From assembly GCA_965223825.1 (NCBI GenBank), contig OZ245018.1:2012272-2076271 (forward strand): a DNA stretch of 64,000 nucleotides, given 5' to 3'. Of the stretch, positions 6,114 to 24,418 are shown piece by piece. This DNA is from Gammaproteobacteria bacterium (lineage in GTDB: Bacteria; Pseudomonadota; Gammaproteobacteria; CAJXQU01). The notes under the pieces were generated by a model that saw nothing but the letters and a program-made list of their open reading frames with translations, searched no databases and was not told the DNA's origin. Every line of letters begins with the position of its first letter. The first letter of the stretch is position 1. Both the position numbers and the translations under genes were made by a program.

Positions 6114-9038
6114 ATGACAGCGATTATGGAAATGCCGGACATTAACGATACGGAATTCAAAAAAGATCTATTAATGGCGCACCTAAACGATACGGTAAGC
6201 CAACTTTTCCCCGACTTTTCCTCGCAGATGACGGCTGATTATTTTAACGCCGTCGACGTCAGCGATCAGGTTGCGCACTTATGTGCACTCACCACCACTG
6301 AGATCGCAGGTATTAACCAAGAGTTGCTTCTTACCAGTAATGAAGGTCAAACCCATACATTTATAAATCGAAATAGTTACAGTGGCTTACTAAGCAAACT
6401 GATCAAACAATTACCGACAGAAAAACCATTACAATCAGCAAAAATCTTTACCTCATTGAATGGCGATATCGTCATCGACATCTTTGATTTTGCACCACAA
6501 CGCCGTTTCGACACGACCAATCTCGATCATCGTGAACGCCTCGATCAACTAATCGATTCGATCACAGAATATGAACCCGAACTTGCCATCGAGGATCTGA
6601 TCACGCTGTTACACACTTGTAGTGAAGATTATGTGCTAACCACCAGTGATCGCCGTTTATGTCGTCACTTCCGCATGGTACAAAGCCTTTGGGGCAATGA
6701 TGATGTGAAAATTGACGTCTTATCTCACCGTGATGATCCTTATACCGATATCACGATCGGCTTCGGTAATGGCGATCCGCGGCAAGTTTTTGAACGCGTT
6801 TGTCAGTATCTTGGACGACATCAAATCGATATTCACCGTGCGCACTTCGAAACATTTGAGCATACAGATAACAGCCGCGTTTCATTGATCGGCTTACTCG
6901 TCTCAAATGCGGATGGCGAAAGCATTAAAACCGATACTCCAGCATGGCAAGAACATCGACACAACCTCGTCCACGTCCCTTTAATGAGCGATGAGACGAT
7001 GGCTTTGTATGACGATCAGAAGCAAATGAGTCTCTTACAAGCTGAGCTCCTCTGCGCAATGGGTGCGCTCATTCACCAGCGCCTGTGCAAAGTCGATTCG
7101 TATCGCTACACCTTAGAACGGATCACCGATGTTTTGCATAAACATCCCGAGTTTTCCTGCACCATTTTTGACTACCTGATCAATAAATTTGCACCAGAAA
7201 GCGGCAAAAGCACCGAAACGAAAACGCATCTCCTATCTGATCATGATATTCACAGCATGACTGAAACCGATGCAGCAATATTACGCACGCTAGAACTGGC
7301 CGCCTTTAGTATTCTAAAAACGAACCTACACTTTCCAACGCGTTACGCACTCGCCTTTCGACTAGAACCTGACTTTTTTTGCATTGCTGATCGCACCACC
7401 ATACCGCACGGCGCTTTTTTCTTTTACGGCAAAAACTTCTCTGCCAGTCACGTACGTTTTCGCGATATTGCCCGTGGCGGCATGCGTATCGTTCGGCCGC
7501 GCAATATGGATGATTATATTTTTGAAACAAGTCGCTTGTTCGACGAAAACTACGCTCTCGCCTACGCGCAACAGTTAAAAAACAAAGACATTCCCGAAGG
7601 TGGATCAAAAGGGGTTTTACTGGTTAAACCCGGTCGTGATTTTGAACAATGTGGTCGTGCGTATGCCGACAGCTTGCTCGATCTGATCACGCCGGACACA
7701 GAAACGGCGGCACTACGTATCGACTACCTTGAACACGATGAGCTTATCTACCTTGGCCCGGATGAGAATGTCTCACCGAATTTGATTAACTGGATTATTC
7801 ATCGCGCGGAATCACGTGGCTATCCGATGCCGAATACCTTTATGAGCTCAAAAGCTGCCAGCGGCATAAATCATAAAGAATATGGTGTGACGAGCGAGGG
7901 TGTAACGGTCTTTCTCGATACCGCTTTAAAAGAATGTGGTATTGATCCGAAAAATATGCCTTTTACAGTAAAAATCACTGGCGGCCCCGACGGCGATGTA
8001 GCCGGTAATGAAATCCTCATTTTGCATCGCGAATACGGTGAAAATGCAAAAATTATCGGTATCGCTGACGGCTTCGGAACAGCCGAAGATCCAGAGGGTC
8101 TTGATCATGCGGAGCTGATCAGACTGGTTAAAGCCAGTTTACCGATCACGGATTTCTCAGCCGATAAACTGGGGCCACAAGGCACGCTGACGAATATAGA
8201 AACAACAGAAGGCGTACAAGCACGAAATTCTCTGCATTTCCGTCTAAAAGCAGATGCTTTTGTCCCAGCAGGTGGTCGACCGCAAGCGATCAACATGCTC
8301 AATTGGCATCATTATTTAGATGAAACGAATCAGCCATCGAGCCGCATTATTGTTGAAGGTGCAAACCTCTTCATCACCGCCGAAGCACGAGAAAAACTCT
8401 CCGCGGCGGGTGTGTTGATTATTAAAGATAGTTCTGCGAATAAATGTGGCGTGATCTGCTCAAGCATGGAAATTCTTGCCGGGATGCTGGTCTCAGAAGC
8501 AGAATTTATATCCATTAAACCGGATTATGTTGAGGACGTATTAAAACGACTGCGTGACCTCGCCGCATTAGAAGCCAAAGCCCTCTTGCGCGCGCACCAA
8601 CATCACCCTTATGAATCGTTGCCTGAGTTAAGTAAACAAATGAGTTTGCAAATTAATCGTTTACACGATGCAGTCGCGGCCTTTCTAATGCAATCACCCG
8701 ATTGCCAACCAGACATGTTGAATGCACTTGTCGAAAACTATATTCCTCAATCCTTAATGCAATTAATTGGGCGTGATGCGATCGCTCGAATCCCCGCCGC
8801 GTATTTTCGTCAGATCATTGCGTCTGTGTTAGCGAGCCGTATGATCTATCACGAAGGCATCGATTATTGTCGTCATATGAGCGAAGAAAAAATGGCGGAA
8901 CTGGCCCTAGCTTATCTACAAGAAGAACGAAATATTGCAGATATGATTCACGCACTGGATACCAGCCAAGTAGAACATAAAGAACAGATCATCAACTTGC
9001 TCCGATCAGCCGGCGCTGGGGCGGCATTAAGAGCGTAA
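6114..9038 (+). CDS. NAD-specific glutamate dehydrogenase of the large bacterial GDH family (about 110 kDa class).
   Basis: An AAGGAG RBS lies 6 nt upstream. Motifs GSKGVLLVKPGRD, ITGGPDGDVAGNEI and IVEGANLFITAEAREKLSAAGVLIIKDSSANKCGV are typical of Bac_GDH large NAD-GDH. Confidence 0.8.
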   Translation: MTAIMEMPDINDTEFKKDLLMAHLNDTVSQLFPDFSSQMTADYFNAVDVSDQVAHLCALTTTEIAGINQELLLTSNEGQTHTFINRNSYSGLLSKLIKQLPTEKPLQSAKIFTSLNGDIVIDIFDFAPQRRFDTTNLDHRERLDQLIDSITEYEPELAIEDLITLLHTCSEDYVLTTSDRRLCRHFRMVQSLWGNDDVKIDVLSHRDDPYTDITIGFGNGDPRQVFERVCQYLGRHQIDIHRAHFETFEHTDNSRVSLIGLLVSNADGESIKTDTPAWQEHRHNLVHVPLMSDETMALYDDQKQMSLLQAELLCAMGALIHQRLCKVDSYRYTLERITDVLHKHPEFSCTIFDYLINKFAPESGKSTETKTHLLSDHDIHSMTETDAAILRTLELAAFSILKTNLHFPTRYALAFRLEPDFFCIADRTTIPHGAFFFYGKNFSASHVRFRDIARGGMRIVRPRNMDDYIFETSRLFDENYALAYAQQLKNKDIPEGGSKGVLLVKPGRDFEQCGRAYADSLLDLITPDTETAALRIDYLEHDELIYLGPDENVSPNLINWIIHRAESRGYPMPNTFMSSKAASGINHKEYGVTSEGVTVFLDTALKECGIDPKNMPFTVKITGGPDGDVAGNEILILHREYGENAKIIGIADGFGTAEDPEGLDHAELIRLVKASLPITDFSADKLGPQGTLTNIETTEGVQARNSLHFRLKADAFVPAGGRPQAINMLNWHHYLDETNQPSSRIIVEGANLFITAEAREKLSAAGVLIIKDSSANKCGVICSSMEILAGMLVSEAEFISIKPDYVEDVLKRLRDLAALEAKALLRAHQHHPYESLPELSKQMSLQINRLHDAVAAFLMQSPDCQPDMLNALVENYIPQSLMQLIGRDAIARIPAAYFRQIIASVLASRMIYHEGIDYCRHMSEEKMAELALAYLQEERNIADMIHALDTSQVEHKEQIINLLRSAGAGAALRA

Positions 9039-9435
9039 CTATTATCACCACCGTCTTTGCATTTGCGAAGGCGGTGATCGTCCCTCCTCCAGCACAGTTC
9101 TAATGCCCTCTCTTGGATTTGATCATAAAACGTTCACAGATTTGTCATAATAAAACGACATCCCAACATAAAAAGCGGTAACTAAAACTATAAACTAGTT
9201 AAATAACTACATATAAACTATTGTATTTTAAAGGAGTTTATTTTTAGTAAAAACCTGGCCCCGTGCTTGCTATCAATGCCCTAACGTCAGAACCAAAGTT
9301 ATAAATACAAAGTAGTGTCATACAACCACCTTTGATTCTGAATAATATCAACGAATTAGCGTAGCTTTTTAAAGTCACAAAGGATTCTGTCGACACAAGA
9401 GCTACTTTACGTTAATTCCGGCAAGGACAAAGAGA

Positions 9436-12400
9436 ATGGAATATCTCGCTGGACCAAGGAACACATACATGCCAAATCACCTCTTCTCAGGCAGCGCGCT
9501 CAAGCGTTTTGCTCTTTACTGTTTTTTCAGTTTAATCACTATCACAGCCCATGCTGAAGACTACACGCTCGTATACAGCGAGACGTGGGATCGAGCAGGC
9601 GCCATCCCTCTAGAAGGAGCCACCGTCAGCGGTGATTTATATGGCCGACTCATTCCTGAAACGGGTGGCATCACACGCGTTTATTATTATCTTGATGGCG
9701 CTAGTCGCCAATTTAAGAATGAACTATCACCGCCTTATGATCTCAATGGTGGTCCATCAAGCAGCGCGGTCCCTTATGACACTACGGACTTAACTGATGG
9801 CTCACATACAATCCGTGCAGAAATCCTTTTAGATACTGACGAAATTATCAACATCAATACCAGTTTTATTGTTGCGAATAATGTGGCTCTCGAGAATGTC
9901 GCACCAGTATTAAGCACCATTGGTAATCAGAGCGTCGATGCCGATTCAATTCTCAACCTATCCATTACAGCAAGTGACTTAAACGACGATCCGCTTAGTA
10001 TCACCGTTGATGACCTACCCACCTTCGCAAGTTTTTCGGATAACGGCAATGGCACAGCAACGCTGGGCTTTACCCCGTTAGAAGGTGATATCAACACGTA
10101 CGCGATCACTGTCAACGTCACCGACGGTGAATTTACTGATAATGAAACATTCCAACTCACCGTTGGTGAAGCGGGAAGCCAACCCTATCGCTTGGTTTAC
10201 TCAGAAACGAATGATCGCGCCGGTCAAATCCCACTTAATGGTGCCGTTGTAGGTGGTGATTTATTCGGTCGACTAATTCCAGAGTCAGGCGGCATTACAA
10301 GCATTCTTTACTATCTTGATGGCTCAAATAACCATTTCAAAACGGAAACCCAAGCACCTTACGATATCAATGGTGGTTCCAGCACTGCGAATGCATTTGA
10401 CACGACAGCATTAAGCGATGGTGTCCATACTATCCGTGCGAAAGTGACGTTCAGTGGTAGCGACATCATCAACTTCAACACAAGTTTCACTGTCGATAAC
10501 GGTACCGTGACTGAGAATCAAGCACCGGTACTCAACGCGATAGGTTCACAATCTCTTGAAGTAAATAACAGCTTGTCGATTAGCATCAGCGCAAGTGACA
10601 GTGATGTTGATCCGATAAGTTTCAGCACGATTAACTTACCGGCATTTGCCAGCTTTACTGACAATGGCAACGGCACAGCAACACTCAATATCAACCCCGC
10701 AACTGGCGACGCAGGATCGTACAGCATGACAGTGAATGTCACTGACGGCCTGTTGAGCGACAGTGAAGTGATCCAAATTCACGTGACCGATCCGGTGGTT
10801 GTGGAAAACATCCCGCCGGTACTCTCCTCGATCGGGTCACAAACCGCGTTTGTTGATGAATCGTTTACGATAAACCTCAGCGCGTCAGATGCGAATTCTG
10901 ACCCGCTGACGATCTCACTCACCAATGGCCCCTCGTTTGTTAGTCTCACAGACAATGGTGACGGCACTGCGAGTCTTAGTGGTCTCGCAAGCTCCACCAG
11001 TATTGGTCAACACAGCTTGACAGTGCTTGTCTCCGACGGTGCGCTGTCTGATAGCGAAACGTTCCAACTTCAAATCATAGAACCTGTTATTGAAAACGAA
11101 GCACCGGTTCTTTCGCCTATCGGTACACAGACAGTTGAAGTCGGTGAAAGCTTTAACCTGTCGATCTCCGCTAACGATGTAAACGGTAATGCTGGCCTAA
11201 TAATTAGCTCAACAGATGCACCTAGCTTCGTCACATTGACAGACTTAGGTGATGGATCCGCTAGCTTGGTTGCGACCCCAGGCAATGCTGACATCGGTCA
11301 ACACAGTATGACGATCACCGTTTCTGACGGTGAATTGTCTGATACTGAAACCGTGACGTTCAACATCAATGCAGCCAGCACACATCCATACAGCTTGGTC
11401 TACAGCATGACCTCCGACCGAGCAGGTCAAATCCAACTAGAGGGGGCAACGATTTCAGGTGATTTGTTTGCACGATTACTGCCCGAATCTGGCGGCGTTT
11501 CAAACGTTCAATATTTCTTGGACGGTAGCAGTTCTGCTTTCAAGTTTGAATCCAGCGCACCTTATGATGTTAACGGTGGCAGCTCAACGGCTCGTGCTTA
11601 CGATACAACAGCACTGACTGATGGCTTGCATACGATCAGAACGCTCATGTACTTAAACACAGGCGAAAGCATTACCTTCGATACTCAATTCATCATCGCA
11701 AACAATGCTCCGCAAGAAAATGTTGCACCCGTTCTTAACCCGATCAGCAACGTTAGCTTGCTGGCCGAAACCAGCCAAACGATCACGATCAATGCCTCTG
11801 ATGTGAATGGCGATGTATTAACTATGACGGCGACAGGCTTGCCTGCATTTGCCAGCCTGACAGATAACGGCAACAACACAGGCTCTCTGCTGATCCAACC
11901 AACAGCGGTCGATGTTGGTAGTTATCCTGTGAGTATTAGCGTTGCCGATGCAGAATTCTCTGATACAGAAAACTTTACGATCGTGGTAACAGAGGAAATC
12001 GAACAACCGTATTACCTCGTTTACAGCGCATCATGGGATCGCAATGGCCAAAACTTACTCGATGGCACTGTCGTCAGTGGTAATTTGTATGGTCGAATGC
12101 TGCCTGAATCAGGTGGTATCACACGCGTCTATTATTACTTGGATGGATCAAACTCGCGTTTTAAATCTGAAGCCTCAGCACCCTATGATCTCAATGGTGG
12201 ACCATCGAGTAGTGCTGTGCCTTACGACACAACGCAGTTGAGTGATGGACCACATGTGATTAGAGCCGAAGTGTTTTTAAATTCTGGTGAGCTGATCAAC
12301 TTTGATACCACCATCATTGTTGCGAATAATGGTCCGGTGAATACTGCACCGGTATTGAGCGCAATTGGCAATCAAACCGTTTTAGCTGGTACTTCATCGA

Positions 12401-15400
12401 GCATCACTGTTTCAGCAACGGATGCGCAAGGTGATAACCTAAACTTCACGCCTTCTGGTTTCCCTGCTTTCGCACAGTTAACTAACAACAGCAACAACAC
12501 AGCGACCATCAATTTCACACCGTCTGTTGCAAATGTTGGATCAACCAACGTCAGCGTGTCGGTTTCTGATGGCTTACTGCAGGATGCTGAAACATTCCAA
12601 ATTACCGTCACAGCGCCAGCATCGGGTGGTGGGAATGTCATTCTCAATGAATTCGTTGCGGGTAACGACAGTGACTATCTAGATGGAGAAGATTGGATTG
12701 AGTTACATAACAATGGTGACCAAGCCGTCGATTTGACGGGCTGGTGTCTCACTGACGATGTCACCGTTCCAAACATGTGGTGTTTCACTAGCGGTAATAT
12801 TGCTGCGGGTGGTTATCTCATCATCACGGCGGATGATCCAGATGTGCCTGCGGATCTGCACGCAAACTTTAAATTGGGTAAGGGTGGAGAGTACTTAGGC
12901 TTGTTCAAACCGGATGGCAGCGTTGCGACTGAATTCGCACCTGAATTTCCGCAGCAATACGATAATGTTGCCTACGGTTTGAACACTGAGGGTGAAGCAC
13001 GTTATTTCCCAACGCCAACACCTGGCGCGGCAAATAGCGAAGGCGTCACTGACTTCTTCAGTTTTGATCCTGATCAAACCACGTTTAACAGCGCTACAGG
13101 CAACTTGAGCGCACAAGCAACCCTTTCAACTTTAGGGACGGTCTCTGAAGCCTATACACTAAGTACTGATGATGGCGGCATGGGCTGGTTATCCGCGAGC
13201 ACGATGGCTGATGAAGATGGTGTAACACCGGATCTCATCGAAATACTGGCTGATCCCTCAGGTCTTGCTGAAGGCACCTATGCGGGTACTGTCTCTGCGA
13301 GTGCGACAGGCATCGGTGAAGGTTCTATGGCAATTACGTTAATCGTTACAGAAAGCAGCACCCCAACCGGCTCACTCATCCTTAACGAATTTGTTGCTAG
13401 CAACAAATCGGATTATGTTGATGGCGAAGACTGGTTGGAAATCTATAACGACGGTGCAACAGCCGTTGATCTGACTGGCTGGTGCTTGACTGACGACGAA
13501 ACGAACCTCAGCCAATGGTGCTTCGCTAACGGATCGATTGCTGCGGGTGAATACTTGGTTGTGATCGCAGATTCACCGGATGTTCCAACCGATCTGCACG
13601 CGAACTTTAAACTGGGCAAAGGTGGCGAATATCTTGCGCTGATTAAACCAGATGGTTCAATTGCAACGGCGTATGCACCTGAATTTCCACAACAATACGA
13701 TGATATTTCCTACGGTCTGGATAGTTCGGGTGCTGAAAGCTACTTCACAACCCCGACTCCCGGTGCAGCGAATGGTGAAGGCGTCACGGATTTCTTAAGC
13801 TTCGCACCAGACTCGTTAACACTGATTGTAAGTTCTGGCAGCGCAACGTCGGAATCTGTACTTTCAACTGTCGCGACAGCAATCACAGGCTATGCCCTGT
13901 CAGTTGATGATGCTGGCCTTGGCTGGCTTTCTGCAACAGCAGGTTCAGGTGAAGATGATCAAACACCGGATGCGATCAGCATTACGGCTGACTCGAATGG
14001 TCTTGCTGCTGGTACATACACCGGGACGATCACGGCATCTGCTTCGGGCTTTGGAGCGGGCCAATTGACCGTCACGCTCTCTGTCACTGAGGGAGGTGGT
14101 TCAACTGGTACGCTGACCCTGACTGAGTTTATGGCTTCAAATGGTTCCACTTATCTTGACGGCGAAGACTGGTTTGAAATTCACAACCCAGGTTCGAGCG
14201 CTGTTGACCTCGCGGGGTGGTGTGCGACTGACGATGTAACCGATTTAGGAAAATGGTGCTTCACCAGTGGCCAGGTTGCAGCGGGTGAATACTTGGTTGT
14301 GATCGCAGACAACCCTGACGTACCGGATAACCAACACGCAGGTTTCAAACTCAGTGCGGGTGGTGAGTATTTTGGTTTGATTAGCCCAACAGGTGTCATC
14401 ACCACGGAATATGCACCCGAGTATCCTGAACAGAGTTCTGATATTTCTTATGGTCTGAATCCAGATAACGAGTTGCGTTACTTCACCGTACCAACACCTG
14501 GTGCGGCGAATAACGATGGTGTCAGCACACTTAATAGCCTGATCACCTTAAGCCATACACGTGGTTTTTATACTGCACCTTTTGATTTGACATTAAGTGT
14601 TGATGCGAATGCTGATAGCGTACGTTACACGCTGGATGGCTCTGAACCTACGTCATCAAATGGCTCGGTTTATAGCTCCCCTATTTCAATTAACAGTACA
14701 ACCATTGTGCGTTTCGCGGTCATCGTTGCAGGTGAAGTCGCTGAAAAAGTAACAACAAACAGTTACTTCTTCTTAGATGACATTTTGCAACAAGCTGATA
14801 TGGATCAATCCGTCATTTCGGCATACAGCGATGAAATCATTGAAGCCATGCAAGCTGTACCAACCATGTCCGTTGCGGCTAACCCAGATGAAATATCCGG
14901 AAGTAGCGGCTTTTATGGTGGTGACAATGTCGAAAAAGCGGTTTCTGTTGAAGTGCTCTATGCAGACGATCCTGCAGCAAGCCATCAAGCAAACTCGGGT
15001 ATCGAATCACATTCACATTTGCGAGCGAAACGGTCATTAAGACTCAACTTCCGCGCGGAATATGGTGACTCGAAATTCAATACTGACTTGATGGAAAAAG
15101 CTCCGCTTAACGGCGACACCGCAAGCAATAAACTGGATAAAATCATCCTCCGTGGCGGTAACAACCGTTGCTGGTGTCGTGATTTCAACCCCGATAAAAC
15201 AACATACACGATTGATCAGTTCTATCGCGATACACAAATTGCAGCAACCGGTAGTGGTATGCGTGGTACCTACGTTCACCTCTACATCAATGGTGAGTAT
15301 CACGGCCTGTATAATGCCGTTGAGCGAGCAGACAAGCATTTCCTCGCGGACTATTTTGATGGTGATGATGCTGACTGGTTCTCAACCAACCACGGGATTG

Positions 15401-16101
15401 TCCATGATGGGTCTGATCCTTTAAACGGTGATCGCACTCGCTATGACTACTTAACCACTACGCTTATCAACAAAGACATGAGTCAAGCGGCCAACTATGC
15501 AGAGCTGCAAGAGTATCTTGAGATAGATCATTTCATCGATTACTTGTTGGTAAGTTGGTGGACGGGTGTTGGCGATTGGCCAGATAACAACTGGTACGCC
15601 GGAAGCCGCAACCCATCATCACCAGAAGGATCAACTGGTTTACTGTTCTTCGCATGGGATGGAGAATGGTCATGGGATGCGCCAGCGGATTTCTCCAACG
15701 ATGGAAAACGGGCAAAAATTCACCCTGCCTTCCGCGGTAATAAAGACATTTCAGACTATGGCGCTTCTGCACCGGACAATCCATTTATCATTGCTCAAAT
15801 CTGGCACGCTGCTCGTCAAAATGCGGATTTCTTAGCGCGAGTGCAAGCACGTGCCGATGCACTGTTAGGCACCGGTGGTGCACTATCCGACGGAGTAGCA
15901 CGTGATCGCTGGTTAATGCTGGCTGATTACGTTAATCAGGCCGTCATTGGTGAATCAGCGCGTTGGGGGGGTGAGGTCAGCAGCCCAGCGAGAACGCGTG
16001 ACATCGATTGGCAAAATGAAGTCAATGTGATTTACGACCTGCTCGATGGGAACGCAGAAGAACTACGCACCCAACTTCGAGAAGAAGGCTACCTACCTTA
16101 A
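9436..16101 (+). CDS. Giant secreted multidomain protein with a signal peptide. It carries 4 copies of a roughly 125-aa module (YxLVYSETxDRAG...YYLDGS...HTIRA), 5 cadherin/He_PIG-like domains (APVLSxIGxQ...TDNGNGTATL...VTDG), 3 lamin-tail domains (LTD), a chitobiase-C-like Ig domain and a C-terminal CotH-like domain.
   Basis: It is a continuous 2221-aa ORF. A Sec-type signal (KRFALYCFFSLITITAHA) follows the alternative start at 9469, which has an AAGGAA RBS. The LTD signature GEDWIELHNNG...DLTGWCLTDD...FKLGKGGEYLGL occurs three times. The CotH-like tail reads LRLNFRAEYGD...YVHLYINGEYHGLYNAVERADKHFLADYF...IDHFIDYLLVSWWTGVGDWPDNNWY. Confidence 0.8.
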   Translation: MEYLAGPRNTYMPNHLFSGSALKRFALYCFFSLITITAHAEDYTLVYSETWDRAGAIPLEGATVSGDLYGRLIPETGGITRVYYYLDGASRQFKNELSPPYDLNGGPSSSAVPYDTTDLTDGSHTIRAEILLDTDEIININTSFIVANNVALENVAPVLSTIGNQSVDADSILNLSITASDLNDDPLSITVDDLPTFASFSDNGNGTATLGFTPLEGDINTYAITVNVTDGEFTDNETFQLTVGEAGSQPYRLVYSETNDRAGQIPLNGAVVGGDLFGRLIPESGGITSILYYLDGSNNHFKTETQAPYDINGGSSTANAFDTTALSDGVHTIRAKVTFSGSDIINFNTSFTVDNGTVTENQAPVLNAIGSQSLEVNNSLSISISASDSDVDPISFSTINLPAFASFTDNGNGTATLNINPATGDAGSYSMTVNVTDGLLSDSEVIQIHVTDPVVVENIPPVLSSIGSQTAFVDESFTINLSASDANSDPLTISLTNGPSFVSLTDNGDGTASLSGLASSTSIGQHSLTVLVSDGALSDSETFQLQIIEPVIENEAPVLSPIGTQTVEVGESFNLSISANDVNGNAGLIISSTDAPSFVTLTDLGDGSASLVATPGNADIGQHSMTITVSDGELSDTETVTFNINAASTHPYSLVYSMTSDRAGQIQLEGATISGDLFARLLPESGGVSNVQYFLDGSSSAFKFESSAPYDVNGGSSTARAYDTTALTDGLHTIRTLMYLNTGESITFDTQFIIANNAPQENVAPVLNPISNVSLLAETSQTITINASDVNGDVLTMTATGLPAFASLTDNGNNTGSLLIQPTAVDVGSYPVSISVADAEFSDTENFTIVVTEEIEQPYYLVYSASWDRNGQNLLDGTVVSGNLYGRMLPESGGITRVYYYLDGSNSRFKSEASAPYDLNGGPSSSAVPYDTTQLSDGPHVIRAEVFLNSGELINFDTTIIVANNGPVNTAPVLSAIGNQTVLAGTSSSITVSATDAQGDNLNFTPSGFPAFAQLTNNSNNTATINFTPSVANVGSTNVSVSVSDGLLQDAETFQITVTAPASGGGNVILNEFVAGNDSDYLDGEDWIELHNNGDQAVDLTGWCLTDDVTVPNMWCFTSGNIAAGGYLIITADDPDVPADLHANFKLGKGGEYLGLFKPDGSVATEFAPEFPQQYDNVAYGLNTEGEARYFPTPTPGAANSEGVTDFFSFDPDQTTFNSATGNLSAQATLSTLGTVSEAYTLSTDDGGMGWLSASTMADEDGVTPDLIEILADPSGLAEGTYAGTVSASATGIGEGSMAITLIVTESSTPTGSLILNEFVASNKSDYVDGEDWLEIYNDGATAVDLTGWCLTDDETNLSQWCFANGSIAAGEYLVVIADSPDVPTDLHANFKLGKGGEYLALIKPDGSIATAYAPEFPQQYDDISYGLDSSGAESYFTTPTPGAANGEGVTDFLSFAPDSLTLIVSSGSATSESVLSTVATAITGYALSVDDAGLGWLSATAGSGEDDQTPDAISITADSNGLAAGTYTGTITASASGFGAGQLTVTLSVTEGGGSTGTLTLTEFMASNGSTYLDGEDWFEIHNPGSSAVDLAGWCATDDVTDLGKWCFTSGQVAAGEYLVVIADNPDVPDNQHAGFKLSAGGEYFGLISPTGVITTEYAPEYPEQSSDISYGLNPDNELRYFTVPTPGAANNDGVSTLNSLITLSHTRGFYTAPFDLTLSVDANADSVRYTLDGSEPTSSNGSVYSSPISINSTTIVRFAVIVAGEVAEKVTTNSYFFLDDILQQADMDQSVISAYSDEIIEAMQAVPTMSVAANPDEISGSSGFYGGDNVEKAVSVEVLYADDPAASHQANSGIESHSHLRAKRSLRLNFRAEYGDSKFNTDLMEKAPLNGDTASNKLDKIILRGGNNRCWCRDFNPDKTTYTIDQFYRDTQIAATGSGMRGTYVHLYINGEYHGLYNAVERADKHFLADYFDGDDADWFSTNHGIVHDGSDPLNGDRTRYDYLTTTLINKDMSQAANYAELQEYLEIDHFIDYLLVSWWTGVGDWPDNNWYAGSRNPSSPEGSTGLLFFAWDGEWSWDAPADFSNDGKRAKIHPAFRGNKDISDYGASAPDNPFIIAQIWHAARQNADFLARVQARADALLGTGGALSDGVARDRWLMLADYVNQAVIGESARWGGEVSSPARTRDIDWQNEVNVIYDLLDGNAEELRTQLREEGYLP

Positions 16102-16116
16102 AAAGTAGGCTCTATA

Positions 16117-16160
16117 AAAACGGCCATTCAAGTTTGTCTTGAATGGCCGTTTTTGTTTGA
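16117..16160 (+). terminator. Rho-independent terminator after the giant gene.
   Basis: A perfect 14-bp stem (AACGGCCATTCAAG / CTTGAATGGCCGTT) has a tttgt loop and is followed by TTTTGTTT. Confidence 0.75.
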
Positions 16161-16279
16161 GGGTTCGGTGTCTTTCTGGTTTAAATCGAATTGAATTTTT
16201 GAACCCAAAATTATAAACCTTTGGGATTTTTCGTTAGATCAGCTTAAGTTTCCTCAGCCTATAAACAAATACATTCACC

Positions 16280-17494
16280 TCAATCCAGTTTTTTTAATTG
16301 GCAACGAAAACCCTTAGTTAATTTTTGAGGATAGACATTTACTAAAGAGACTGAATCACAGTTTTGGAAACGCTTAAATGTGTCGATAGCTTTTACAAAC
16401 GTATTTATGATCTGCTCTTCATCAAATTTACGCTGCTCTATAAATAATGACTTAATCTCTAAATGCCTGCTTTTGCGATGTGCTTTACAATCCATGCGCC
16501 CAATAAACTGGTCTCGGTACAAAAGCGGAAGACTGAAATACCCATATCGGCGCTTCGCCTCAGGTACATAACATTCCAACTGATAGTCAAATTGAAAAAG
16601 CGCTTTTAACCGATCACGCAAAATCACACTATTATCAAAGGGAGAGAGAATACAGAGCCGATTATTAAGTCGGGGTAAGGAACGTTCAAGCGCTCCCGCT
16701 TCAATAAGAAATCTCTCACCACTGATCAATTGCACCTCCTCCAATAAACCTGCAGAAATTCTCTCTTCAACCAATACCTTTACAGCCTGGCGCAAACCGG
16801 TGTTTCGCCGCTGATGTGTCAGGCCTTTCATCGATACCACACCATGACAGCGTAAATTCTTTGCAAGTAAATGATCAGCAAACTCTGCCATAGATGGAAC
16901 CGATGTCCTCACGCCCGTTGGTAAAACCCGCTCAGTCAGATCGTACGTTTTCTGAAACCCTTCCCGATCACTGATCATCAAATCGCCTTGCATATACAAC
17001 TGCTCAAGCGCCTTCTTCGCCGGTTTCCAATCCCACCAACCAGCTCGCTTTTTCGTATTCGACTCCAGATCACGTGATCGTAGTGGACCATCTGAACGTA
17101 CACGGGCTAACAGCTCCTCCATGAGTTTCCTATCCGGATTCTTATACCAATGTGTTTGGCCAGATTTAATCGCATGTTTGTAAGGTAATGAGAATCGAAA
17201 ATCATCCATTGGCAAAAACGCCGCCGCATGCGCCCAATATTCAAAAACCTCCCCCTTTACTAACAATTGATTAGTCATTTCAGCTGAAAAACCCGGCACT
17301 CTTGAAAAAAGTACATGATGGTGCGCGCGCTCCACCACCGAGATAGTATCGATCTGCACATAGCCCAAATGCTTGATCGCTTCATACGCACCCGATAAAC
17401 CACGACCAAAAAATGAAGTTGAAAATAAGCCTTGGGACGCTAAGGCAAGACGGCGAAGCTGCGTCAATTCTCGAGGACTTTTGATGTCAATCAT
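16280..17494 (-). CDS. YcaQ/AlkZ-like winged-helix protein (DUF1006; DNA glycosylase-like).
   Basis: It is 404 aa. The motif GYVQIDTISVVERAHHHVLFSRVPGF and the overall length fit the YcaQ family. Confidence 0.6.
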   Translation of the reverse strand: MIDIKSPRELTQLRRLALASQGLFSTSFFGRGLSGAYEAIKHLGYVQIDTISVVERAHHHVLFSRVPGFSAEMTNQLLVKGEVFEYWAHAAAFLPMDDFRFSLPYKHAIKSGQTHWYKNPDRKLMEELLARVRSDGPLRSRDLESNTKKRAGWWDWKPAKKALEQLYMQGDLMISDREGFQKTYDLTERVLPTGVRTSVPSMAEFADHLLAKNLRCHGVVSMKGLTHQRRNTGLRQAVKVLVEERISAGLLEEVQLISGERFLIEAGALERSLPRLNNRLCILSPFDNSVILRDRLKALFQFDYQLECYVPEAKRRYGYFSLPLLYRDQFIGRMDCKAHRKSRHLEIKSLFIEQRKFDEEQIINTFVKAIDTFKRFQNCDSVSLVNVYPQKLTKGFRCQLKKLD

Positions 17495-17636
17495 GTTTCA
17501 CTTATCTGTGCGGCGAGTATTGCTGAGTGAATATAAGGGCGTCCGAAGTATAAATAGAGAATTTACAATAGCGAAATTTTTCAAGTACTCAACTCCAGAT
17601 TTCCAACAACTCAAACAGCGACATAGTTTTGAATGG

Positions 17637-18344
17637 TTATGCGGCACCGCCTGATCGCCTAGAAAACCAAGCGTGGACAAAGCCTGCCTGATAAAACTGA
17701 ACAGGTAAGTCAAAACCACCGCGTTGGATTATTGACTCAATGTCACTCGGAGGCAGTATTGCAAGATCATTTGCCCATGCGGAGTGGGTTTTTTCTATGG
17801 CATCGACGGGCACGTTTGCAGCATGCAACATACTGACCCATACCTTAAGTAAGGCTTCGTATTCAGGTGAACCTACCGCTGCCGATAAGTCAGCACTGAC
17901 GAAGATTCCGTTAGGCTTCATTCTCTCTGAAATGGCATAAAAAAAGTTGGACCGCGCCTCATTATCGAGAATGAATTGAGAAACCATAAAACAAGTAGCT
18001 GCATCGAAAACCGCAATACCTGGCAATGACTCCACGTAGCCTTCATGAAAGGTACAACGAGAAATAAAACCTTCCTGCTCTGCTCTTTGGTGACATACTT
18101 CAAGCATTGCACTTGAAGGTTCAACAGCAGTAAAACTCCAACTTGGAAACCTACTCGCCAAATAGGAAAGCTCCGCACCAGTACCCAACCCAACACAAAG
18201 TATGTGAGCGACTTGTGGCAGCTCTGAAAAAACCCATTCGAGCTGAAAATAAAGACCATTGTGAACTGGCGCAAGTTTGTTTTGCTGCACGTCATAGCCA
18301 GAAGCCTGTTTATCAAAAACAGCTTTGAGTTCTTCTTGGTTCAT
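17637..18344 (-). CDS. Class I SAM-dependent methyltransferase (small-molecule type).
   Basis: It has the glycine-rich motif I, ILCVGLGTGAELSYL, and a Rossmann-fold layout. Confidence 0.7.
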   Translation of the reverse strand: MNQEELKAVFDKQASGYDVQQNKLAPVHNGLYFQLEWVFSELPQVAHILCVGLGTGAELSYLASRFPSWSFTAVEPSSAMLEVCHQRAEQEGFISRCTFHEGYVESLPGIAVFDAATCFMVSQFILDNEARSNFFYAISERMKPNGIFVSADLSAAVGSPEYEALLKVWVSMLHAANVPVDAIEKTHSAWANDLAILPPSDIESIIQRGGFDLPVQFYQAGFVHAWFSRRSGGAA

Positions 18345-18563: not shown

Positions 18564-18688
18564 ATCTTAATCCCCTCATCGATAAAGTAGCCTCACGAAT
18601 CGTCACGATCACCGTGATTTTTGCTGTTGAGAAAAACTTTTGAAGATTTTTTTGCTAATTCCAATGATGACACGTAGGCGCTAATGTG

Positions 18689-20077
18689 ATGAAAATCAGC
18701 ATTAATCGTCCACTCAGCCGAAGCGTTTCTTTGTGCCTGCTGATCTTGATCGCTGGTTGTACACATAGACCTGCGGATCAACCCGATTTTACCGATCAGG
18801 CACAGCGTCAAACACAGCAAGTCACGAATTGGACAAAAATAAATCAAACTGGTGAAGAAACAGCCTCTCTCACCGCACTCATTGATGCCGATGAATTAAC
18901 TCGTCTGATCACGCGCGCGCTTGATCAGAATCCTTCATTACAACAACGCTGGTGGAATTTGAAAATCAGCGAGGCGCAAGCGCGTATCAGCAAATCTGAT
19001 CGCTTACCCAGCGTTGATGGCAGCATCGACATCGAAAAAAGTGAAGGTGCTGACACGGGTTTTGCAACGGGACTCTCGATCAGTTGGGAAGCGGACATCT
19101 GGCGCAAACTGGATGATCGCTATCTAGCTTCGATCAAAGACGTCGGCGAACAAAAAATGCTTTACCGTGCAGCGCGTGATCTGCTCGCAGCGAATATCAT
19201 GAAAAGTTGGTTGGGAATAATTCAGCAGCAGATCGCCATTCAGATCGAAACCGAACGCTTAAACAGTCTTCAAACAAATGAAAACTTTATTCTACAACGT
19301 TACCGCATTGGTCTTGGGACGCTCGAAGATCTTGATAGTGCGCGCAGTAATGTGGCGAGTTCACGCGCTACACTTGTTGCCTATAACGAAACTCTTGACC
19401 AACTAACGCGATCATTAAAACAGTTGTCTGGCGACATCCCTCAACTGAACGATCTGACCCCATTTAAACAGATAGAAAACTACCCTGCCGTGATCACATC
19501 ATTGGCTAATCTCCCTGAGCAAACATTGCAACGCCGCCCTGATCTGATCGCGGCCTATCTCGCAATCGAAGCCAATGATTATCGAAACCAAGCTGCCTAT
19601 AAAGACATGTTGCCGTCGTTGAATCTTTCTGCCGCACTGTCTGATCTGGCCAGCAATCCAACCGATGCATTGATGACAAACCCAGTTTGGACATTACTCG
19701 CACAACTCACCGCACCACTCTATCGCGGTGGCGAACTGGATGCGGCGGCAGATATTTCACGCTATCAAACTGCGCAAAGTTATCAGGTTTACCGGGAAAC
19801 ATTGTTAACCGCGGTACAAGAAGTCGAAGACACACTGGGCCAAGAGCGATCGTTAACCCGTCAACTTGAACACATCGACGTTGCACTAAACAGCGCACAA
19901 AACAATCTAGTGCAATATGAAAAACGTTATCGTGCAGGTTTGGTCGACATACTCGACCTGCTTTTAATTCAGCAGCAAACCTACGATTTGCAAGCGCAAA
20001 AAAATCAATTACTCGCTGCCCGTCTGACCAACCGTGTCGACCTGGGGCTAGCATTAGGATTAGGAGTTTCCGAATAA
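18689..20077 (+). CDS. RND efflux outer-membrane factor lipoprotein (NodT/TolC family).
   Basis: It has a lipobox, LLILIAGC, and the two-repeat OEP architecture. The track's start is GTG; the first ATG is at 18689. Confidence 0.85.
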   Translation: MKISINRPLSRSVSLCLLILIAGCTHRPADQPDFTDQAQRQTQQVTNWTKINQTGEETASLTALIDADELTRLITRALDQNPSLQQRWWNLKISEAQARISKSDRLPSVDGSIDIEKSEGADTGFATGLSISWEADIWRKLDDRYLASIKDVGEQKMLYRAARDLLAANIMKSWLGIIQQQIAIQIETERLNSLQTNENFILQRYRIGLGTLEDLDSARSNVASSRATLVAYNETLDQLTRSLKQLSGDIPQLNDLTPFKQIENYPAVITSLANLPEQTLQRRPDLIAAYLAIEANDYRNQAAYKDMLPSLNLSAALSDLASNPTDALMTNPVWTLLAQLTAPLYRGGELDAAADISRYQTAQSYQVYRETLLTAVQEVEDTLGQERSLTRQLEHIDVALNSAQNNLVQYEKRYRAGLVDILDLLLIQQQTYDLQAQKNQLLAARLTNRVDLGLALGLGVSE

Positions 20078-21252
20078 TGCGTCAACTTTCTCGCATACTT
20101 GTCTTTGTTGTTGCAGCCTGTTTGTTCGCGACCATAGTTGCCATCACGTTAAAAAAAATGGATGCGTTTGCTAACCGTCCGTTACCGACACCACCGACCA
20201 ATGTTCAAACACCTGAAGTTACTGTAACTCGCGTTTTACCACAAACTTATACCGCAAACGTGATCGGCTATGGCAGTGCAAAAGCCCATTTTTCGATCAC
20301 TCTAACCGCACAAGTTGCCGGGCGCGTTATCGCCTTAGCCGACGAATTTGAAAACGGTCACCGCGTTGCTGAAGGAACCGTTCTCGCACACATCGACGAC
20401 ACCGAATATCGCGCAGCCGTCGCTAGTGCAGAAAGCGACCTCGCTGAAGCACGCGTCGCCCTACTTGAAGAAGAGCGCGAATCGTTACAAGCGCAAGCAG
20501 AATGGTCCGCTTCTGGATTATCTGGAAAACCTGACTCTGATCTCGTCTTACGCAAACCCCAGCTCGCGAGCAAACGCGCTGCGTTAAAAAATGCACAAGC
20601 CATATTAGATAATGCACGTCAGAATCTTGAATACACCAAAATCATCGCACCGTTTGACGCGGTGATCACAACGCGTGAAATAGCACCTGGAAGCTACCTA
20701 AATAGTGGCGCGAATATCGCTGAATTAAGCAGTACTGATCGAATAGAAATTACACTGGCATTATCTGATCAAGAATGGCAAAACCTCACCGGTGAAAACA
20801 GTCAACAGACCAATCTCATCGGAAAAACCGTCAACTTAACAAGTGTTGAAGGCACGCATGGCTGGCAGGGTCAGATTTTACGAACACTGCAACATGTTGA
20901 TACAGAAACCCGCCAACGTGGCTTAATTATCAGTGTTGAAGATCCACTTTCCGAGACAATCCCCCTCTTTCCAGGCACATTTTTACAAGCTGAAATAACG
21001 GGCCAGGAACGTTCACAACTTTGGAAATTACCCAGCTCAGCCCTGAGCCAACGGGGAGAGATCTGGTATGTGAAGGAAGATAAGACATTAATGAACCTTG
21101 AAGTCGATCCAGTATTTACGGACAAAACATTTATTTATATTCACGCACCGGATGCTTTCGCCGACACAGAGCACCAAATCGTCAACCACCCATTGAATAG
21201 TTATTTACAAGGGATGGTTGTCACCGCAACCGAGGTAAAACCGGATGTCTAA
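20077..21252 (+). CDS. RND efflux periplasmic adaptor (membrane fusion protein, HlyD family).
   Basis: It has an N-terminal TM anchor and a coiled-coil/lipoyl/beta-barrel layout. It abuts the OMF gene and overlaps the RND pump by 8 nt. Confidence 0.85.
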   Translation: MRQLSRILVFVVAACLFATIVAITLKKMDAFANRPLPTPPTNVQTPEVTVTRVLPQTYTANVIGYGSAKAHFSITLTAQVAGRVIALADEFENGHRVAEGTVLAHIDDTEYRAAVASAESDLAEARVALLEEERESLQAQAEWSASGLSGKPDSDLVLRKPQLASKRAALKNAQAILDNARQNLEYTKIIAPFDAVITTREIAPGSYLNSGANIAELSSTDRIEITLALSDQEWQNLTGENSQQTNLIGKTVNLTSVEGTHGWQGQILRTLQHVDTETRQRGLIISVEDPLSETIPLFPGTFLQAEITGQERSQLWKLPSSALSQRGEIWYVKEDKTLMNLEVDPVFTDKTFIYIHAPDAFADTEHQIVNHPLNSYLQGMVVTATEVKPDV

Positions 21253-24200
21253 TTCCGATCTTAACCATCGTGGCATCATCCCTTGGTTTGCAACCAATCC
21301 TGTCGCTGCAAATTTATTATTAATGCTGGTGATCGCGCTGGGTGTTTTACAAATTAAAAACACACAAAAAGAAGCTTTTCCCAGTATGGAACCGGACAGC
21401 TTAACGATTTCCGTTGAATACATTAGTGGTTCAGCGCAGCAATCAGAAGAAGGGATTGCGACTAAAATTGAAGATCAACTCGAAGGGTTGATGGGTATTA
21501 AAACCATCACCAGCACATCAACGGGTACGGGTGTCACCGTCACGATTGAAAAACAAAGTGAATATGATCTGGATGTGTTGTTTCGAGATGTTAAAACCCG
21601 CGTTGATGGGATCTCCACTTTCCCAACCGAAGCGCGGAACCCTGTCATTGAAAAAGCCGAACGTGAAGAACACTCGTTATGGATTCAATTACATGGTGAT
21701 ACTGATCGCTATACGTTACAGCGTTTAGCCGATAATTTAAAAACTGATCTTCTCGCACATTCTGATATAAGCAGCGTGACGGTTTCGGGTTGGCTGGATC
21801 CGATGATGGTCATTGAAATCAACGAGACGCAACTGCAAGCGTATGGTCTGACCCTATCGGATGTTGAAGATATTGTGAATCAATATTCAAGCAATACAAA
21901 AACGGCCGTGTTGCGCAATGAACAAACTTACTTACAGCTCAAAGCCTCAGAACAAGCGTATTTAAAAGAAGACTTTGCTGCAATCCCACTCTTAGCGACC
22001 AACAGTGGCGAAAGTATTTTACTCGGCGATATTGCTGATATTCGTGATACTTATGATGACTCGACATCATCACTTTCGCTATTCCAAGGAGAAGCCAGCG
22101 TTGGCCTGCAAGTCATCACCAAAGGCAAAGATGACATTAGTCGTTCTGTCGCCAGTGCGCGTGAAGTGATTCAAGACTGGGAAAATAACGGCCGACTTCC
22201 TGCAAATGTTGAAATGAGTACCTGGTACGACCGCAGTGTCTCGATTACGCAGCGGCTTCAACTTCTGGTCAAAAATGCTGGCACCGGAATTTTATTGGTC
22301 TTTTTATTATTAGCGATTTTTCTCAATTTACGTGTCGCATTTTGGGTTGCAGCGGGGTTACCGTTTATTTTTTTCGGCACCATCTATTTTATGGGCGAAA
22401 ATTTCGTCGGTCTCAGTTTAAATGAGTTCACCACCTTCGGCTTCATAATGGCGCTGGGTATTGTTGTTGATGATGCTGTTGTTGTTGGTGAAAGTGTTTA
22501 TGCAGTGCGACGTGAAAAAGGTGACACGCTTGAAAGTACGATCGAAGGTACGATGCGTGTTGCGCTGCCCACCTTATTTGGTGTCTTCACAACCATCGCT
22601 GCATTTTTAGCGTTATCACAAATTAGTGGCCGTTTAGGCCATCTTTATAGTCAGTTTGCAGCCATCGTTGCCATCTGTTTAACGCTATCCATTATTGAAT
22701 CGAAATTAATATTACCCGCACATTTAGCGCATTTAAAAACACAGATAACGCCAGGTAAAAACCCACTTTCACGTTTATGGTCTGCTATTCAAACAGGGGC
22801 GGATAATGGTCTTAAATGGCTCACCGAAAGTATTTATTTACCGGTAATGCATCAAGCACTCAAACACCGTTACGCCGTTATCATGCTTTTCTTAAGTATT
22901 TTTATTTTAGTTATGAGTATGCCGTTTACAGGTGTCGTGAGAATGAGTTTTTTCCCATCTATTCCGGGCGAAACCGTTCGCGCTGAACTGACCATGCAGA
23001 ATGATGCAAGCGTCGGGCAAACTCATCGAAACTTACTCTTAATGGAAAACAAAGCGATCGAGCTTGATCGCACTTTGCGTGATAACAACAAAACTGATCA
23101 GGACGCTGGCGAATCAAATATCAAGAACTTACAGATCTTATCCGAAGCGGATCAAAGCGGACGTGTGACTGTCGAATTAGTTGATGACGTGCCTTACGAT
23201 ATAACAACATTTACACGTGAATGGCGAAAAAGTATTGGCTTACTTGAAGGGGCACGAACGATACGTATTCAAGAACGTCGTGGATCCGTTGATGCGCTTC
23301 GCATAGAGTTACGTGCTTCGGATGACGATGTTTTAAGTGCCGCCGGTGAAACCTTACGCAAGCAACTTAAACAAGTCCCCGCCGTCAGTGGTATTGAAGA
23401 TAATCTCTCACCAGGGCAACCGCAATTACACCTCAAATTAAATGCCCAAGGTGAAGCGCTTGGCTTGACGACCGACCAACTCGCGACACAAGTCCTGCAA
23501 GCATTTAATGGGCAAATCGTACAGCGCTATCAACGCAACCGCGATGAAATTGAAGTAAAAGTACGCTATCCAGAAGAAGATCGACAAAACCCGTTTGACG
23601 TGATCAAAGCCAAAGTCCGCACGCCAGACGGGAATGTCGTGTCCCTCACCAGCGTTGCCACTGTCACCTCAGGTTATACACGTGAAACGATTACGCGAAT
23701 TGATAACCAACGCGCTGTCTATCTCGCGGCGGATATGGATAAAGATCTGCTCTCACCGATGGAATTAGTCGCACAACTAAAACGCGATGTCATCCCCTCA
23801 CTGCAAAAGCAATACCCTGGCTTGGGCGTACATTTCGCTGGCGAAGCACAAGAGCAAGCTGAAACGGCATCTTCCATGGAAGAAAAATTCGCCCTCGCCA
23901 TGCTGGTTATTTACATGTTGCTGGCGATTCCACTGAAATCATACACACAACCGATCATCATAATGATGGCGATCCCATTTGGTGTAGTTGGTGCCGTACT
24001 TGGCCATTGGATGAACGATCTGTCCCTCGGTATTTTATCCTTCAACGGCATCATTGCCCTAAGCGGTGTGGTCGTCAATGACAGTTTATTATTGGTATCG
24101 CGTTTTAATGAACTTCAGAAAAAAATGGATAACATCGAAGACGCCATTCGACAAGCAGGACGCGATCGTCTTCGTGCCGTGTTACTCACCTCTTTTACCA

Positions 24201-24418
24201 CCTTCGCAGGTTTAATGCCGCTGCTGGGTGAGACAGAACGACAAGCACAATTTTTAATCCCAGCCGCCGTTTCATTATCCTACGGGATTATGTTTGCGAC
24301 CGTGATCACATTGATACTTATCCCCACCCTATTGTTAATACAGCAAGATATCCGAAAAGGACTAAACTCTGCAGGACGATGGTTGCTGACAAACCAAGGA
24401 GATTCAAAACCATGTTAA
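21245..24418 (+). CDS. RND family efflux transporter permease (AcrB/CzcA superfamily).
   Basis: It is 1057 aa with a 12-TM topology and two large periplasmic loops. Conserved TM4-like segments include GIVVDDAVVVGE and VVNDSLLLVSRF. Confidence 0.9.
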   Translation: MSNSDLNHRGIIPWFATNPVAANLLLMLVIALGVLQIKNTQKEAFPSMEPDSLTISVEYISGSAQQSEEGIATKIEDQLEGLMGIKTITSTSTGTGVTVTIEKQSEYDLDVLFRDVKTRVDGISTFPTEARNPVIEKAEREEHSLWIQLHGDTDRYTLQRLADNLKTDLLAHSDISSVTVSGWLDPMMVIEINETQLQAYGLTLSDVEDIVNQYSSNTKTAVLRNEQTYLQLKASEQAYLKEDFAAIPLLATNSGESILLGDIADIRDTYDDSTSSLSLFQGEASVGLQVITKGKDDISRSVASAREVIQDWENNGRLPANVEMSTWYDRSVSITQRLQLLVKNAGTGILLVFLLLAIFLNLRVAFWVAAGLPFIFFGTIYFMGENFVGLSLNEFTTFGFIMALGIVVDDAVVVGESVYAVRREKGDTLESTIEGTMRVALPTLFGVFTTIAAFLALSQISGRLGHLYSQFAAIVAICLTLSIIESKLILPAHLAHLKTQITPGKNPLSRLWSAIQTGADNGLKWLTESIYLPVMHQALKHRYAVIMLFLSIFILVMSMPFTGVVRMSFFPSIPGETVRAELTMQNDASVGQTHRNLLLMENKAIELDRTLRDNNKTDQDAGESNIKNLQILSEADQSGRVTVELVDDVPYDITTFTREWRKSIGLLEGARTIRIQERRGSVDALRIELRASDDDVLSAAGETLRKQLKQVPAVSGIEDNLSPGQPQLHLKLNAQGEALGLTTDQLATQVLQAFNGQIVQRYQRNRDEIEVKVRYPEEDRQNPFDVIKAKVRTPDGNVVSLTSVATVTSGYTRETITRIDNQRAVYLAADMDKDLLSPMELVAQLKRDVIPSLQKQYPGLGVHFAGEAQEQAETASSMEEKFALAMLVIYMLLAIPLKSYTQPIIIMMAIPFGVVGAVLGHWMNDLSLGILSFNGIIALSGVVVNDSLLLVSRFNELQKKMDNIEDAIRQAGRDRLRAVLLTSFTTFAGLMPLLGETERQAQFLIPAAVSLSYGIMFATVITLILIPTLLLIQQDIRKGLNSAGRWLLTNQGDSKPC

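Follow-up and report, generated by a model that had tools for sequence, protein, structure and literature searches.

A 64,000-nucleotide stretch of a Gammaproteobacteria bacterium assembly (GCA_965223825.1, contig OZ245018.1, positions 2,012,272 to 2,076,271), hereafter the window, carries an uninterrupted open reading frame (ORF) for a very large protein that is built from repeated beta-sandwich modules and ends in a CotH kinase-like domain. The protein belongs to a known class, that of the secreted multidomain proteins combining lamin-tail domains (LTD), a CHB_HEX_C domain and a CotH domain, and is distinguished within it by a lineage-specific N-terminal array of Big_7-type and cadherin-like modules. 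We favour, with moderate confidence, the reading that it is a modular stalk whose binding modules would bring an active kinase of the CotH type to a target outside the cell, as sequence comparison and structure modelling suggest.

The CotH domain and its putative active site

The C-terminal part of the protein matches the CotH family (PF08757) with 58.5 bits against a cut-off of 23.8 (E=1e-15). Twenty-four subfamily sequences, which share 32-55% identity with the window protein, served to build an AlphaFold2 (AF2) model of residues 1700-2221, hereafter called H-K as they comprise the CHB_HEX_C and CotH domains; it reached a pLDDT of 90.1 and a pTM of 0.90. When this model was compared with the PDB by Foldseek, the only strong matches were 5jda and 5jd9, the CotH kinase of Bacillus cereus (E=1.3e-11, probability 1.00, target-normalised TM-score 0.70-0.72). 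Residues were then mapped by profile-sequence alignment to the 5jd9 chain with hhalign, which pairs HLYINGEYHGLY with FIKINGQIQGVY, GDWPDNNWY with FDGFVHNY (D2047 standing opposite the Asp of FDGFVHN) and FAWDGEW with IPWDYDATW. In B. subtilis CotH, the substitutions D228Q and D251A each inactivate the enzyme (PMC7821199). The two Asp of 5jd9 are separated by 23 residues, the same distance as D228 and D251, and the two numberings are linked through motif identity and this equal spacing. The window protein would thus carry a catalytic loop of the D-x4-N type and a metal-binding motif of the W-D-x-D/E type, and the residues concerned (D2047, N2052, W2074, D2075 and E2077) are invariant in 24 of the 24 subfamily sequences. 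Since both motifs are invariant in the subfamily, the catalytic machinery is likely intact and the domain is likely an active kinase. The combination of an adhesin-like stalk and a CotH kinase, proposed in an earlier note on this DNA, appears somewhat strengthened by the match to the B. cereus CotH fold and by the conserved motifs.

Module architecture

Pfam scans, run on the whole protein as well as on excised segments, were combined with self-comparison and home-made module profiles to establish the order of the modules. After the signal peptide (SP) the protein reads SP-A-C-A-C-C-C-A-C-A-C-L-I-L-I-L-H-K, where A is a Big_7-type immunoglobulin (Ig)-like module (four copies), C a cadherin-like/He_PIG module (six), L an LTD (three) and I a BACON-like module (two), while CHB_HEX_C (H) and CotH (K) occur once each at the C-terminus. 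The LTD family (PF00932) scores 146 bits against a cut-off of 34.3 over three stretches, the third copy alone reaching 42.9 bits, and CHB_HEX_C_1 (PF13290) scores 49.4-56.7 bits against 22. On the whole protein, Cadherin_5 gives 77.3 bits against 26.5 over six stretches and Big_9 gives 81.5 bits against 23.6. When C1 and C3 are scanned singly, He_PIG (26.1-26.8 bits against 24) and Big_9 (26.3-32 against 23.6) pass their cut-offs, and Cadherin_5 (25.3-26.0) stays slightly under 26.5. All the domains named in the earlier note, namely LTD, CotH, He_PIG and CHB_HEX_C_1, are therefore found above their Pfam cut-offs. Its cadherin/He_PIG type also holds, with a corrected count, as there are six such modules and not five and two of them, not one, are additional to the regular alternation. 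Likewise, an Ig-like module of about 100 residues does separate the LTDs, as had been described, but it occurs twice rather than three times and measures about 110 residues, the third LTD running straight into CHB_HEX_C.

Most C copies contain acidic motifs, such as SASDxNxD and TDNGNGTA, of the kind that may be expected to bind Ca2+. The mature protein is very acidic, with 290 Asp and Glu against 78 Lys and Arg, and has eight Cys, which form one closely spaced pair in each LTD and a CxC in the CotH domain. Both the acidity and the Cys pattern look typical of extracytoplasmic Ca-binding proteins. On inspection of its sequence, the window protein has no hydrophobic membrane anchor, lipobox, RTX, LPXTG or PEP motif, and the absence of a lipobox rules out its being a lipoprotein. 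Taken together, acidity, Cys pattern and lack of anchor motifs fit Sec export followed by release or by retention at the surface.

The A module lies at the limit of what Pfam recognizes, as A1 matches Big_7 (PF17957) with 24.1 bits, exactly the cut-off, and A2 with 19.9, under it. Structure prediction of the N-terminal module, which the earlier note had proposed, gives for A1 a plain Ig/Fn3-like sandwich with a pLDDT of 92.5. Its Foldseek matches are generic Ig/Fn3-like accessory modules, including those of glycanases, at TM-scores of about 0.5-0.6. In an exhaustive search, the A profile finds 2548 representative proteins at E<=1e-3 and 1106 at E<=1e-10. Among the 42 closest A-bearing proteins, 25 match Big_7 (E<=1e-5, best 9.4e-25) and 17 match BACON_2, and the catalytic partners are purple acid phosphatases, GSDH domains and GDSL lipases, with Kelch propellers also present. 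Given these matches and the variety of partners, profiles and model together characterise the A module best as a mobile extracellular module from a divergent subfamily of Big_7 rather than as a new fold. The I module reaches 16.5-18.9 bits with BACON_2 (PF19190) in three of the six copies tested (E=0.0014-0.0079), all below the cut-off of 25, and a profile made from I1 and I2 matches a stretch of the protein P0159 that Pfam labels BACON_2. By these profile comparisons the I module is BACON-like.

Repeat divergence and stability of the gene

The presence of four, six, three and two copies of four module types in a single protein would be compatible with an ORF that is an assembly chimera or a collapsed or expanded repeat locus prone to changes in copy number. 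The copies are, however, only distantly similar. Protein and DNA identities are 57-65% and 58-68% for A, 39-54% and 49-59% for C, 60-70% and 59-68% for L, and 51% and 56% for I, and the longest exact DNA repeat in the gene is 29 nt. Judged by this divergence, the module repeats are old. Moreover, the protein encoded in an independent metagenome assembly (Logan SRR31366777) has 2210 aa and is 100% identical, and the protein from another sample (P0001) is 99.3% identical, with 16 substitutions and zero indels. A syntenic orthologue (P0002), 72% identical, has the identical 17-module order and differs by only two internal indels of one residue each, and its locus shows the same neighbourhood of a chemoreceptor (methyl-accepting chemotaxis protein) and a glutamate dehydrogenase (GDH) as the window. 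The diverged repeats and the three agreeing independent comparisons refute both an assembly artefact and copy-number instability, to which we would leave hardly any chance, and by the same comparisons the ORF is a real, stably inherited gene. Several expectations of the earlier note thus fall away. The LTDs are 60-70% identical and not alike at about three quarters of their positions, and repeats taken to be highly similar are no more than 57-65% (A) and 39-54% (C) identical in protein and 49-68% in DNA. They are too diverged to drive homologous recombination or assembly collapse, the module order kept in P0002 speaks against variation in repeat number, and an error-prone or chimeric assembly is at odds with the identical protein recovered independently.

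Relatives and distribution

The N-terminal A-C array joined to the L-H-K core is found in about seven protein clusters at 90% identity, which makes this combination, as far as the searched sequences go, rare and lineage-specific. Relatives differ in the number of modules. The arrangement A-C-L-I-L-H-K is seen in P0279 (1147 aa), while A-C-C-C-A-C-L-I-L-H-K is shared by P0005 (1615 aa) and P0003 (1485 aa, the first A being truncated by the contig end). P0007 (2226 aa) is arranged as C-L-I-L-I-L-C-C-A-C-L-H-K and has a lipobox. At its N-terminus, the lipobox-like signal LVLSAC, followed by SGS, precedes Calx-beta modules. On account of this signal, some members of the family are probably anchored to the envelope by a lipid and not released. 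In P0027 (1261 aa), A modules up to 67% identical to A1 are part of an A-C array that is joined to a CotH domain of another, canonical subtype (full-length Pfam match, E=5e-48), with neither LTD nor CHB_HEX_C. The same stalk has thus been combined with two divergent CotH domains, so that the pairing of stalk and CotH recurs.

The core itself is much more widespread. L-H-K is found in planctomycete proteins of 2200-2400 aa (P0062, P0095 and P0111), and at least 600 stretches of the H-K subfamily were confirmed in species-representative genomes, which were scanned with the pattern HLY[ILV][ND]G[VLI]Y[WFE]G, one that the HLYINGEYHG of the window protein itself does not fit. They come from Planctomycetota, Verrucomicrobiota, Chloroflexota, Bacteroidota, Myxococcota, Acidimicrobiia and one metagenome-assembled genome (MAG) of Thiotrichaceae. 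Across 80 H-K loci the median length of the CotH ORFs is 1136 aa, with values of up to 4000 aa. The earlier note had considered both size and architecture unusual. This does not apply to the core or to lengths of 2000-4000 aa, which are common in other phyla, but it does apply to the A-C array joined to the core. Clustering of the neighbours at 80 related loci revealed no conserved partner gene. A cluster of ORFs of about 290 aa is present in 40 of the 80 loci (L001-L080), and the one example inspected lies antisense to the CotH coding region and overlaps it; most likely this cluster is no real gene but an artefact of composition in high-GC genes.

As to the host, which had been taken for a gammaproteobacterium, the phosphoenolpyruvate synthase of the window is closest to uncultured Gammaproteobacteria MAGs and a Tara Oceans sequence (78-81% identity) and is only 67-68% identical to that of cultured genera, which agrees with this placement and makes the host an uncultured gammaproteobacterium. 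The Tara Oceans match hints at a marine origin.

Comparison with known systems

The Bacillus CotH spore-coat Ser/Thr kinase (5jd9/5jda) has the same atypical kinase fold and shares the D-x4-N and W-D-x-D/E motifs with the window protein. It is, however, a single-domain protein of about 360 aa that acts in spore-coat assembly, whereas the window protein adds a signal peptide, 16 further modules and a C-terminal helical extension, belongs to a non-sporulating gammaproteobacterium and has no CotB/CotG-like substrates encoded near its gene. Closer in architecture are the cellulosomal proteins of Clostridium thermocellum Cthe_0239 (LTD, LTD, Fn3, CotH) and CseP (Cthe_0044, CotH) (PMC6083626). Indeed, Cthe_0239 is extracellular and presents LTD, then an Fn3/CHB-type module, then CotH in the same order as the window protein; yet the C. 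thermocellum CotH proteins are bound to the cellulosome, presumably through a dockerin, have no A-C array and, at 117 kDa, are far smaller. The proteins of Planctomycetota, Verrucomicrobiota and Myxococcota, such as the 'lamin tail domain-containing protein' of Pirellulales (P0095) and the 'CotH protein' of Enhygromyxa salina (P0131), share the L-H-K core and the CotH subfamily, with 30-52% identity over H-K and often more than 2000 aa, but carry other modules (Fn3, Calx-beta, extra C-terminal LTDs) and no N-terminal Big_7/cadherin array.

The highest-scoring non-orthologous matches of the window protein are Tandem-95/He_PIG/cadherin-like repeat proteins. The Tandem-95 giants (NF012211) have the same type of repeat as the six C modules (70.9 bits over five stretches), but the whole-protein cut-off of 90 is not reached, and Tandem-95 proteins usually contain dozens of repeats and neither CotH nor LTD. 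Giant adhesins of the repeats-in-toxin (RTX) kind that use a type I secretion system (T1SS), such as LapA and MpIBP, resemble the window protein in being giant, acidic and composed of Ig/cadherin-like repeats in Gram-negative bacteria. This identity was ruled out, as there is no GGxGxD, HemolysinCabind match or C-terminal T1SS signal and an N-terminal Sec signal is present instead. The neighbouring OEP, HlyD_3 and ACR_tran genes do not supply an exporter either, since they form a resistance-nodulation-division (RND) efflux pump with no ABC transporter. A secretion-system partner, for which the earlier note had suggested a search, is thus not found adjoining the gene.

Proposed function and alternative explanations

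In the favoured reading, a very acidic protein encoded by a single-gene unit would be exported by the Sec system and would probably be extracellular or associated with the surface. In its N-terminal part, about 1000 residues long, ten beta-sandwich modules (four of the Big_7 type, six cadherin-like) would make up an extended stalk, and the three LTDs, spaced by the two BACON-like modules, are presumed to be binding modules that would attach the protein to a polymer or particle outside the cell or to a cell surface. There the CotH domain would move phosphate from a nucleotide to a target, either a protein Ser/Thr or possibly a sugar hydroxyl. Several observations weigh against this reading. ATP is scarce outside cells. 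The CotH biochemistry is limited to Bacillus spore coats and includes no LTD-CotH protein. The Pfam match covers only positions 66-262 of the 322 of the CotH profile, and the protein is about 10% identical to the CotH of known structure. When the PDB was searched by sequence and by profile, neither the CotH region nor the A1 profile nor the CotH domain of P0027 retrieved a CotH entry; only the fold search did. The hhalign alignment has a low stand-alone probability (4.9%, E=0.008), and the equivalent of N233 hinges on the placement of a one-residue gap. In addition, the signal peptide was read by eye, and neither the 80 related loci nor the window show a conserved neighbour that would indicate a substrate or a secretion system.

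The protein could instead be purely adhesive, its CotH domain serving as a non-enzymatic, ligand-binding head. Fungal CotH3 binds host GRP78, and about 80% of the window protein is made up of modules typical of adhesins (Ig-like, cadherin-like and LTD), while the scarcity of extracellular ATP also speaks for a binding role. The CotH proteins of Mucorales are described as invasins or virulence factors (PMC9973265), which counts in the same direction. Nevertheless, catalytic residues that stay invariant in a subfamily only 32-55% identical to the window protein (D-x4-N and W-D-x-E) are expected of an enzyme and not of a scaffold, and no T1SS retention module, autotransporter, lipobox or sortase signal is present for anchoring to the cell. 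This invariance leads us to favour an active kinase over an adhesin head, and we regard the latter as rather unlikely. A different question is whether an active CotH-fold kinase would act on a non-protein substrate, namely a glycan or another polymer of the matrix. The analogy would be with those secretory-pathway kinases that phosphorylate sugars. In favour of it, CHB_HEX_C, a module of glycoside hydrolases, always precedes the kinase domain, the A and I families adjoin carbohydrate-active or phosphatase domains and resemble glycanase accessory modules, and cotH-like genes accompany Pel polysaccharide loci in Gram-positive bacteria, namely streptococci and clostridia (PMC7112168). On the other hand, the sole characterised CotH enzyme is a Ser/Thr protein kinase, no gene for polysaccharide synthesis or degradation adjoins the window gene, and the modules are at most putative glycan binders. 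A kinase acting on glycans is plausible in view of the CHB_HEX_C neighbour and of the company of the A and I modules, yet it seems to us about as improbable as the adhesin head, and the stalk that would bring an active CotH kinase to its target is retained as the preferred interpretation.

Gene start, export signal and transcription

Two in-frame ATGs (9436 and 9469) are each preceded by a purine-rich stretch. The gene call on the independent contig starts at the second one (M12) and yields a protein of 2210 aa. Since the start at 9469 is the one called there and gives a signal peptide of 29 aa, as long as that of the orthologue P0002, it is probably the true start and the true protein is probably the one of 2210 aa. 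The signal peptide counted from this start reads MPNHLFSGSALKRFALYCFFSLITITAHA, followed by EDY after the cleavage site. In the window protein as well as in P0002, P0005 and P0027, the first A module abuts the AXA site, and Sec export by this signal peptide is plausible. The coordinates of the gene and of its modules, numbered from the first ATG, are collected in Table 1.

Table 1. Features of the CotH gene in the window (residue numbers refer to the 2221-aa reading)
Feature	Position	Strand	Basis
Whole ORF, 2221 aa, stop codon included	9436..16101	+	uninterrupted
Sec-type signal peptide, aa 12-40, cleavage between AHA and ED, no lipobox	9469..9555	+	read by eye
A1, Big_7-type Ig-like beta-sandwich, aa 41-150	9556..9885	+	Pfam, AF2, Foldseek
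C1, cadherin-like/He_PIG/Big_9, aa 154-247	9895..10176	+	Pfam, self-comparison
A2, aa 249-358	10180..10509	+	self-comparison, Pfam
C2, C3 and C4 in succession, cadherin-like, aa 362-452, 458-549, 554-646	10519..11373	+	Pfam, self-comparison, module profiles
A3, aa 650-759	11383..11712	+	self-comparison
C5, aa 762-856	11719..12003	+	Pfam, self-comparison, module profiles
A4, aa 857-966	12004..12333	+	self-comparison
C6, aa 969-1064	12340..12627	+	Pfam, self-comparison, module profiles
LTD 1, aa 1067-1195, Cys pair 1104/1116	12634..13020	+	Pfam, self-comparison
I1, BACON-like Ig, aa 1201-1312	13036..13371	+	BACON_2 E=0.0035, under cut-off
LTD 2, aa 1313-1441, Cys pair 1350/1362	13372..13758	+	Pfam, self-comparison
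I2, BACON-like Ig, aa 1447-1558	13774..14109	+	self-comparison, I profile
LTD 3, aa 1559-1690, Cys pair 1596/1608	14110..14505	+	Pfam
CHB_HEX_C_1 / Fn3_assoc, aa 1709-1777	14560..14766	+	Pfam; beta-sandwich in AF2 model
CotH kinase-like domain and C-terminal helical extension, aa 1800-2221	14833..16098	+	Pfam, AF2, Foldseek
Putative catalytic loop D2047-W-P-D-N-N2052, compare CotH D228-x4-N233	15574..15591	+	conservation, hhalign
Putative metal-binding motif W2074-D2075-G-E2077, compare CotH W-D251-x-D	15655..15666	+	conservation, hhalign
Intrinsic terminator hairpin, ACGGCCATTCAAG / CTTGAATGGCCGT, A-run and T-run on flanks; common to convergent AlkZ-like gene	16116..16159	.	read from sequence

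Upstream of the gene lie about 400 nt of non-coding, AT-rich DNA, and downstream a strong hairpin with a T-run, so that the gene is most likely transcribed alone. This hairpin is missing from the output of a simple terminator scan, and a promoter scan gave a result below chance expectation. Rfam has zero matches in the window and in the 400-nt upstream region, so that a cyclic di-GMP riboswitch is absent. The G+C content of the large gene is 0.48-0.49 against 0.43-0.44 in its flanks (14001-16000 compared with 16001-18000 and 8001-10000), and the GC skew becomes positive in its 3' half. These shifts could reflect amino-acid composition or the acquisition of the LTD-CHB-CotH part from another lineage.

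Neighbouring genes

The genes around the CotH gene are functionally unrelated to it and encode a Cache-type chemoreceptor, a 974-aa NAD-glutamate dehydrogenase, an AlkZ-like glycosylase, a methyltransferase and the OEP-HlyD-AcrB RND pump. The dehydrogenase (6114-9038, plus strand) matches ELFV_dehydrog and only part of the Bac_GDH catalytic-domain profile, its size lies between those of the small hexameric GDHs and of the NAD-GDHs of about 1600 aa, and the orthologous locus L081 has it conserved upstream of its own CotH gene. The tripartite OEP-HlyD_3-AcrB efflux operon (18686-26380, plus strand) is followed by a 239-aa ORF, which shares 40 nt with the pump gene, and by a sensor histidine kinase of 432 aa, a pair that resembles efflux regulators of the BaeSR type.

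Further away, all on the minus strand, are a 2-methylcitrate synthase of the PrpC type (30153-31394), the phosphoenolpyruvate synthase (38079-40466), a 786-aa RND transporter of the HAE3/MMPL type (49059-51419) and a 938-aa MalT-like/LuxR-type regulator (57559-60375). A 2-hydroxymuconic semialdehyde dehydrogenase (46222-47682, minus strand; TIGR03216, 883 bits) lies within a run of co-oriented minus-strand ORFs (41378-47682), which suggests a catechol meta-cleavage pathway for the degradation of aromatic compounds. The ORFs at 52514-53818 and 54278-55441 have no NCBIfam match at E<=1e-10.

Significance

From a genomic point of view the protein is unsurprising, as a known architecture has been extended by ordinary Ig-like modules. 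Its gene is a clean, stably inherited example of the class with an apparently intact active site, and environmental bacteria have an abundance of CotH proteins with a signal peptide and LTDs, with at least 600 loci among species-representative genomes. We consider it a tentative possibility, less probable than the general stalk-and-kinase reading, that the protein is a truly extracellular bacterial kinase and a prokaryotic counterpart of the animal secretory-pathway kinases, which its LTD and cadherin-like modules would hold on marine particles, in the biofilm matrix or on another cell and which would phosphorylate matrix proteins or glycans there. If this were true, the LTD-CHB_HEX_C-CotH core would represent a widespread and so far unrecognised system of extracellular phosphorylation in environmental bacteria.

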